A DNA stretch of 64,000 bases from Eledone cirrhosa (Eukaryota): the NCBI GenBank assembly GCA_964016885.1, contig OZ024742.1:151404001-151468000 (forward strand), in the 5' to 3' direction. Every line of letters starts with the position of its first letter. Position 1 is the stretch's first letter. Shown here in pieces: positions 44,886-45,958 of the stretch. The notes below the pieces were generated by a model. The model searched no databases. It was given only the letters and a program-made list of their open reading frames with translations, and was not told the origin of the DNA. The position numbers and the translations under genes were made by a program.

Positions 44886-45226
44886 CTTTAATCTGTTATT
44901 TTAATATATATATATATATATATATATATATAGAAACGGAAAAGATGAAACGAAATTTCATTTCCCACTCTTAGTACGGCTGTTACTTAAATATAAGTAT
45001 GTACACGTACATACATATATGTATACAGACGTACAGTAGTATGTACATATATATACATACATGCACACACATATATATATAAAATTTCGTTTCATCTTTT
45101 CCGTTTATCGTTTTCAGTGCACCCGGCTGATTAACCCACTCGATATGCAAATTGGGCTACTCAGCCGTTAATATGCATAAGGAAAGTATATACTATCAAA
45201 CGTTCAACAATCTGGCAGGAAGGTAC

Positions 45227-45269
45227 ACGTTGCTGACGATAGCTAATAAGCTTGAAACTAGTACAGCGT
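45227..45269 (+). ncRNA. Type I hammerhead ribozyme
   Basis: ACGTTG CTGACGA t-agct-aata-agct-t GAAA CTAG TA CAGCGT; predicted cleavage after 45263. Confidence 0.88.
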
Positions 45270-45617
45270 TCCTTTGTCAGTGTTGAACAAACGAGCAACG
45301 ATGGTTGCTAGACATTACGGCTTAATACGGGATGTTTGTTTACAAACACACCGAGCATTATAATAGATGTTCGGTGAATCCATACGTACATATACATATG
45401 TGTGCATGTATGTATATATATATACATACTACTGTACGTCTGTATACATATATGTATGTACGTGTACATATTTATATTTAAGTAACAACCGTACTAAGAG
45501 TGGGAAATGAAATTCGGCCGATTAACCCACTCGATATGCAAATTAGGCTACTCAGCCGTTAATATGCATAAGGAAAGTATATACATTCAGACGTTCAACA
45601 ATCTGGCAGGAAGGTAT

Positions 45618-45660
45618 ACGTTGCTGACGATAGCTAATAAGCTTGAAACTAGTACAGCGT
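45618..45660 (+). ncRNA. Type I hammerhead ribozyme
   Basis: Identical to 45227-45269; predicted cleavage after 45654. Confidence 0.88.
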
Positions 45661-45958
45661 TCCTTTGTCAGTGTTGAACACACTAGCAACGATGGTTGCA
45701 AACACTACGGCTTAATACGGGATGTTTGTTTACAACACACCAAGCATTATAATAAATGTTCGGTGAATCCATACGTACATATACATATGTGTGCATGTAT
45801 GTATATATATCTACATACTACTGTACGTCTGTATACATATATGTATGTACGTGTACATACTTATATATATATATATATATATATATATATATATATATAT
45901 ATATATATATATATATATATATATATATATATATATATATATATATATATATATATAT

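Follow-up and report, generated by a model that had tools for sequence, protein, structure and literature searches.

A two-armed non-LTR retrozyme insertion in Eledone cirrhosa, probably copied on either side of a (TA)n break by Penelope enzymes

Introduction

Which RNA could be released from two hammerhead ribozymes lying head to tail between (TA)n tracts, and by what means did such a pair come to be inserted there? We addressed this question in a stretch of 64,000 nucleotides of the Eledone cirrhosa genome (GenBank assembly GCA_964016885.1, contig OZ024742.1, positions 151,404,001 to 151,468,000, forward strand), referred to below as the window and numbered from its first letter. Circles have been demonstrated for the retrozymes of coral, mussel and axolotl (PMC7229834), mobilisation of animal retrozymes by Penelope-like elements (PLEs) via circular RNA is proposed and not shown in the cited sections of PMC7229834 and PMC4209133, and in vertebrates retrozymes and PLEs co-occur and have pseudo-LTR homology (Li et al. 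2026, 10.64898/2026.07.22.740005). PLEs are themselves described with inverted truncated copies, tails and a bias towards (TA)n, the tail being attributed to the endonuclease (PMC8557442, PMC3846280). In the open-licence literature, supplements apart, we found no report of the present family in cephalopods or of a two-end geometry for retrozymes. The reading that we consider probable is a two-armed non-LTR retrozyme insertion, for which a monomer, probably a circle, would have served Penelope enzymes as template on either side of a (TA)n break (Table 1).

Results

Detection of the hammerhead pair

Reading the window sequence, we found CTGACGA at 45233 and 45624 and GAAACTAGTA at 45254 and 45645, which places the predicted GUA cleavage points after 45263 and after 45654, at the spacing of 391 nt given in the original prediction. 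Each core reads CUGACGA-U-AGCU-AAUA-AGCU-U-GAAA-CUA-GUA, with the helices in the type I order I, II, III and with the required CUGANGA, GAAA and NUH elements in place. Tandem Repeats Finder returned a period of 391 (1.9 copies, 95% matches) at 45124-45866. The two hammerheads had been called identical, which is exact over 45227-45289 (63 nt) and fails beyond it: position 45226, in the helix I bulge, is a mismatch, and the two forward units are 95% alike. The interval first proposed for the pair, 44934..45862, covers the forward tandem and also takes in an inverted arm (44934-45081), the complete order being (TA)n, an inverted arm measuring 0.35 unit, a forward arm measuring 1.94 units and a second (TA)n.

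Table 1. Features of the insertion and of related elements, in window coordinates
Feature	Position	Strand	Remarks
Third family-A insertion, two-armed (E1 + E2)	5982..6550	-	
(TA)n target, left flank	44904..44933	.	
Inverted 5'-truncated arm, 0.35 unit	44934..45081	-	3' end is fixed end E2 (carries tail); C at 45096 shared with forward arm
Forward arm, unit 1	45082..45514	+	45087-45514 is a 428-nt unit of canonical length
ATGCAAAT octamer-like word	45145..45152, second copy 45536-45543	+	function without support
Hammerhead 1, extended helix I	45202..45289	+	core 45233-45263; U-U at helix II base; predicted cut after 45263
Predicted 391-nt monomer	45264..45654	+	37% GC, fold z -6.7, longest ATG ORF 56 aa
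TA-rich palindromic hairpin	45381..45477	+	stops at fixed end E1 (~45477)
Private 37-nt deletion junction (45514/45515)	45500..45526	+	one exact genome match
Forward arm, unit 2	45515..45866	+	ends at E1
Hammerhead 2	45593..45680	+	core 45624-45654; predicted cut after 45654
(TA)n target, right flank	45867..45959	.	
Sister family B two-armed insertion	45960..46727	+	62% identical over 420 nt; core at 46464; separate, in adjacent (TA)n
5'-truncated two-armed Penelope-like element	49411..51020	-	GIY-YIG, CX4CX2C linker, minimal hammerhead at 49600, in (TA)n

The hammerhead motif is not due to chance: a search of the genome for the core gave 20,901 + 19,716 = 40,617 matches against 13 for a reversed control, and the exact 34-nt core of the family to which the pair belongs (family A) matches 23,085 times. 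Rfam at its gathering score, one criterion for membership of the type I hammerhead, returned no match. In a relaxed Rfam scan, dominated by chance miRNA matches on the TA hairpin, the hammerheads at 45233/45624 were absent among the 82 matches listed, and the sister-family copy at 46446-46517 matched Hammerhead_HH9 short of the 52-bit cut-off, at 38.6 bits (E 9e-8).

Fold and class of the ribozyme

For the covariation analysis we aligned 54 copies, comprising 53 of the 56 distinct cores and one duplicate, after discarding three distinct cores with foreign upstream sequence. In this alignment 92.1% of cells are paired, and helices I and II show two-sided changes at 7 of 15 pairs; the covariation score was reached by none of 500 shuffles, and slid controls pair at no more than 50%. 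Since the core and helix III were preset by the search pattern, the test informs helices I and II, and the changes come from few lineages (families A, A' and B). In a separate search that left the middle of helix III free, CTAG is kept there in 95 of 100 copies among the matches listed.

Helix I, interrupted by an internal bulge, extends over about 20 bp, helix II has 4-5 bp, and the helix II loop UAAYAA is constant across families with differing stems. Because of the long bulged helix I and the retention of UAAYAA despite the stem differences, we infer a ribozyme of the canonical type with loop contacts. The minimal PLE hammerhead proposed originally has a helix II of 7-8 bp, a helix I of 4-5 bp, an extra base before 10.1 and G10.1-C11.1 (PMC4209133); with its short helix II, its long helix I and the extra base absent, the present ribozyme does not belong there. 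U-U replaces G-C at the helix II base in 46 of 53 rows, and this U-U weakens the ribozyme at 45233/45624.

Helix III consists of ACUAGU alone. It had been described as unstable by itself and able to pair between two copies, and the energies bear this out: forming a hairpin of one pair and a tetraloop costs about 5.4 kcal/mol, against -4.8 kcal/mol for an inter-copy duplex of six pairs. Nearest-neighbour folding gave -162.8 kcal/mol for a forced double hammerhead, -156.1 for two single hammerheads and -169.7 for an inactive local fold; the forced double form lies 6.9 kcal/mol above the minimum, with an inter-copy helix III pairing probability of about 0 in a model of secondary structure alone that leaves tertiary contacts outside. 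Because the folding favours local helix I pairing over a strand-swapped double hammerhead, the predicted cleavage of this dimer is not assured. Both peculiarities recur in axolotl, where Amex1 (single pair under a palindromic tetraloop) and Amex2 (U-U at the helix II base) cleave poorly alone and better as dimers (PMC7229834), and among Xenopus dimers one of nine was cleaved in vitro (Li, Clavereau and Pollet 2026, 10.64898/2026.07.22.740005).

Unit length and a private deletion

Unit 2 is without 37 nt at its start, and the resulting deletion junction has a single exact match in the 3.0-Gb genome. Among 42 core spacings measured in family A, 27 fall at 419-433 nt, one at 414 and 13 at 456-538, and 391 occurs here only. 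As the junction is unique in the genome, the 391-nt form is a one-off private deletion that has not spread, and the replicating unit is about 420-430 nt; the length of about 430 nt anticipated for a unit with no deletion is thus right for the family, and that of 391 nt describes this copy's deletion only. The predicted 391-nt monomer contains no antisense hammerhead core. Each unit is about 3% off the family majority, so that the insertion at 44934-45866 is an older, decayed one.

For a tandem repeat, proof of a circle is difficult, the ligation junction being genomic sequence as well. A read joining 45654 to 45264, as first suggested for this locus, would not distinguish a circle from the uncut tandem, because for 63 nt its sequence is that of the uncut tandem, and further out that of the family majority found at thousands of loci. 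The deletion junction occurs once in the predicted monomer, at position 251, and being single in the genome it has the consequence that a cDNA carrying it twice must derive from a circle; the private deletion is in this way a single-locus barcode for a circle in vivo. The ends of several contigs at 45262-45265, in a comparison with four sequencing runs, were rejected as a cleavage signal, since the deepest run has them too and they are accounted for as a graph branch by a variant at 45266 (52%). One run, X6, is skewed to another subfamily and was not used as evidence.

Arms, ends and haplotypes

We mapped family-A arms in 105 stretches, consisting of the top BLAST loci and of matches taken in genome order along contig 1, with 68 stretches yielding a total of 104 arms at an identity of at least 89%; 13 overlapping loci and arms under 89% identity were left out of the end counts. 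At their 3' ends, 42 arms stop at fixed site E1 and 44 at E2 (86 in total), 18 elsewhere and none at the cleavage site, in a set of loci picked for an intact core, so that arms starting at the cut site are under-sampled. Measured to where the TA microhomology stops, the distance between E1 and E2 is 59 nt, and 76 of the 86 arms ending at them run into TA. Head-to-head pairs combine E1 with E2 in 23 of 29 cases, and in no case E1 with E1 or E2 with E2. The 5' ends fall all round the unit, with 4-14 in each 36-nt bin and 1 of 104 within 5 nt of the cut (2.7 expected). Of the arms, 55 are longer than one unit and 13 longer than two, and multi-unit arms pass straight from unit to unit with no ORF between. 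Fold-back self-priming was discarded as a general source of the inverted arms, equal 5' positions being found in just 2 of 29 pairs, and an autonomous Penelope-like element was likewise discarded, there being no RT or GIY-YIG ORF inside and the arms running unit into unit.

Haplotypes at 12 polymorphic sites agree in 712 of 739 comparisons within an arm, in 441 of 477 across arms and in 48,328 of 78,300 between loci, with one locus (L121) supplying 441 of the 1,216 within-insertion comparisons. Agreement is at least 0.9 in 22 of 30 loci, and three are low (L002 0.56, L019 0.67, L177 0.75). Rare variants are common to both arms in seven loci, among them the insertion at 44934-45866, where the variant is the C at 45096, and array-private variants are found in every copy of both arms at L121 (10/10) and L193 (5/5). 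A different case is L178, where 1412-2943 and 4293-8067 hold two different two-armed insertions, each block-duplicated, indicating later DNA-level duplication.

On the RNA strand, A>G changes outnumber T>C changes by 55 to 29 (p 0.006; the loci are related), with 15 against 18 among single-copy changes, and G>A likewise outnumbers C>T, by 127 to 87 (p 0.055). The A>G excess fits passage through edited RNA, a signal weakened by the G>A skew; counted as fixed marks per insertion, A>G makes up 2 of 14 shared and 15 of 231 single changes (p 0.25). If the family were a satellite or MITE-like repeat amplified at the DNA level, its hammerhead being vestigial, long tandem arrays and outer inverted repeats would be expected, and both exist; this is nevertheless very improbable given the head-to-head unequal arms, the unequal fixed ends matching those of an RT-encoding PLE, the covariation of the RNA structure and the strand-biased A>G.

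Relation to Penelope-like elements

The PLE at 49411-51020 belongs to a family with 72,133 first-look candidates in the genome, whose two ends lie 58 nt apart between (TA)n flanks; among 23 loci examined, E1 and E2 occur together in 6 of the 8 with ends on both strands. One copy (L218) has an open frame of 1,257 aa with RT-like and C-terminal GIY-YIG parts and the CX4CX2C linker; searched against Pfam, the whole protein matched no family, and sub-regions matched GIY-YIG above the cut-off and RVT_1 below it. The hammerhead of the 49411-51020 element itself fits the minimal PLE definition, and its helix III, AGAACU, is not palindromic. The element is a candidate for the kind of partner that would mobilise the retrozyme, and the common two-end geometry (59 vs 58 nt) points to an enzyme class.

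Sister family B, by comparison, has G-C at the helix II base, a GUU triplet and ends 69-74 nt apart, and it forms a tandem array of 32 x 466 nt (G000:C1:5.738-5.752 Mb). Comparing the retrozyme unit with four loci of the abundant PLE, we found no homology beyond TA-rich sequence. PLE fragments are present in 13 of 60 retrozyme loci, which we read as a reflection of the common (TA)n target. Because of the missing homology and of the 69-74 nt between the family B ends, what the data argue for, with good support from the end geometry, is the PLE enzyme class as driver, and not a particular partner family.

The unit could also be the detached pseudo-LTR of an autonomous PLE family, the insertions then being truncated PLE copies. 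The tandem, inverted and tailed design is indeed PLE-like (PMC8557442, PMC3846280), and in Xenopus, matches to 22 known elements (21 PLEs) have been obtained for 24 of the 57 retrozyme families (Li et al. 2026). Here, however, multi-unit arms enter the next unit and not an ORF, and the abundant PLE that was compared gave the negative result above. The unit occurs in one of the top 30 GIY-YIG loci (L085), about 1.3 kb from the match, with no direct link from ORF to unit traced; 20 loci, taken from 182 in which helix II is longer and helix III unchanged, match none of six PLE protein queries; and the hammerhead is canonical, unlike the PLE's own. We therefore hold the pseudo-LTR origin to be quite unlikely, and keep to a non-coding retrozyme served by PLE enzymes.

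The word GAAAYGAAAT stands in the E1-E2 tails of families A (45082-45100) and B (46289-46318), as a hairpin, and also at the E2 end of the PLE (51017-51035); it is a possible recognition signal, with a non-significant BLAST match (E 0.38). Another PLE, at 46742-49200 (GIY-YIG at 47435-48043), has inverted ends of 148 nt and adjoins the family B insertion.

Proposed template and priming

The mechanism that we propose begins with an RNA whose hammerhead fold is backed by covariation, which has no ORF and which derives from dispersed and tandem copies; its cleavage is predicted, and would be weak as a monomer and aided by inter-copy ACUAGU pairing. The template would be a circle formed by ligation of the monomer and gone round more than once during copying, as suggested by the arm lengths, the uniform 5' ends and the known retrozymes. 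PLE endonuclease and RT would act in trans, priming at E1 and E2 via short TA microhomologies, as the end geometry indicates, and this would leave what is seen in the insertions, namely 3' ends at two fixed sites with one per arm, one haplotype per insertion and a geometry like that of the co-resident PLE. The copy in the window, if transcribed, would give a 391-nt monomer, from a locus about 3% decayed whose variant has not spread.

A cut linear monomer copied once would not give such arms, since no arm ends at the cut site and the arms run through repeatedly. If a homogeneous tandem array were transcribed into a linear multimer that stays uncut, the same PLE enzymes could copy this with no need of a circle, and the fixed ends, the scattered 5' ends and the common haplotypes would fit equally well; long uniform source arrays do exist (32 x 466 nt), and folding predicts weak cleavage. 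Such a template would leave unexplained why the ribozyme is retained with compensatory changes, offspring arrays could only shrink, and the array-private variants in all copies of both arms (L121 10/10, L193 5/5) speak for a monomer bottleneck. Both templates are thus compatible with the ends, and we favour the circle because compensatory changes keep the ribozyme, arrays reach 32 units, array-private variants are found in both arms and known retrozymes form circles; the linear multimer strikes us as unlikely, though it is the strongest of the alternatives.

In its most specific form, which we put forward tentatively and which could well be wrong, the circular reading is that the insertions record two priming events, 59 nt apart, of a Penelope RT and endonuclease on a single small ribozyme-made RNA circle, which the enzymes would then have rolled round from either side of a (TA)n break. 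If true, it explains both the spread of retrozymes and the unexplained tail and inverted-arm structure of PLEs. For work in vitro on the unsolved PLE mechanism, the common end geometry supplies a substrate RNA, a pair of priming sites and a target DNA.

Comparison with described systems

Judged by its sequence, the locus conforms to the definition of a metazoan non-LTR retrozyme, with a type I hammerhead repeated in consecutive short tandem units (two or more being required), a GC content below 50% (37%), non-coding sequence, and a high copy number in dispersed and arrayed form in a genome that also contains PLEs. It also has structural features of PLE-mobilised insertions, namely an inverted 5'-truncated copy, partial tandems, a tail at one end and a microsatellite target. 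The retrozyme-like nature, the dimer-assisted cleavage and the possible circle proposed originally agree in this sense with PMC7229834, PMC4209133 and the genomic footprints, apart from the minimal type and the 391 nt, which is not the family unit.

Like the metazoan non-LTR retrozymes of PMC7229834 and Li et al. 2026, the family has a canonical type I hammerhead, short low-GC tandem units with no ORF, tens of thousands of copies, several families and co-resident PLEs. It differs from them in that RNAs of 170-400 nt are reported there, while the unit read in the DNA here is slightly longer, at 420-500 nt; two-armed (TA)n insertions with two fixed ends are not among the features described in the cited sections; and we found no PLE pseudo-LTR homology in the comparison with one abundant PLE family. 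With endonuclease PLEs bearing a linker of the Neptune/Nematis type (PMC8557442, PMC3846280, PMC4209133) it has in common partial tandems, an adjacent inverted 5'-truncated copy, an optional tail at one end, the (TA)n preference and a hammerhead within the repeat. Unlike these PLEs it is without an RT or endonuclease ORF, its hammerhead is canonical and not minimal, and its tail measures 59 nt against the 30-40 bp quoted in the cited sections, the local PLE also having 58.

The octamer-like word lies upstream of 49 of 66 cores and varies by 2.6%, against 3.2% for the rest of the unit, so that it is not clearly better conserved. Newt satellite 2 reportedly carries such a word upstream of its ribozyme, as here. 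Both are tandem hammerhead repeats, the newt satellite needing the dimer (as cited in PMC2220036, PMC7229834). They differ in that the host U1/U2 genes here have no octamer, leaving an snRNA-type promoter unsupported: restricted to U1 and U2 genes, the search found the octamer within 320 nt in 0 of 19 distinct upstream sequences, and the newt-type promoter was rejected. The U1 and U2 genes in L091-L120 have in common TCAGT at about -58 and TTAYYTCCCTT at about -260, with the octamer absent, and these two words look like the snRNA promoter elements of this lineage.

Further repeats were noted in the window. A 66-nt stretch at 44838-44903, between two (TA)n runs, recurs by TA flanks at L129, L135 and L147 and probably represents one end of a different repeat family. 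Other families also have hammerhead-like cores in the window, at 29980 (+), 16933 (-), 33981 (-) and 5078 (+); those at 29980 and 16933 are near-identical, and the former is just upstream of the strand end of an opposite-strand RT fragment (29271-29750). At 1256-2434 a 392-nt x 3 tandem consists of LINE-like coding sequence, its likeness in period being coincidental, and LINE RT copies related to it occupy 60249-62347.
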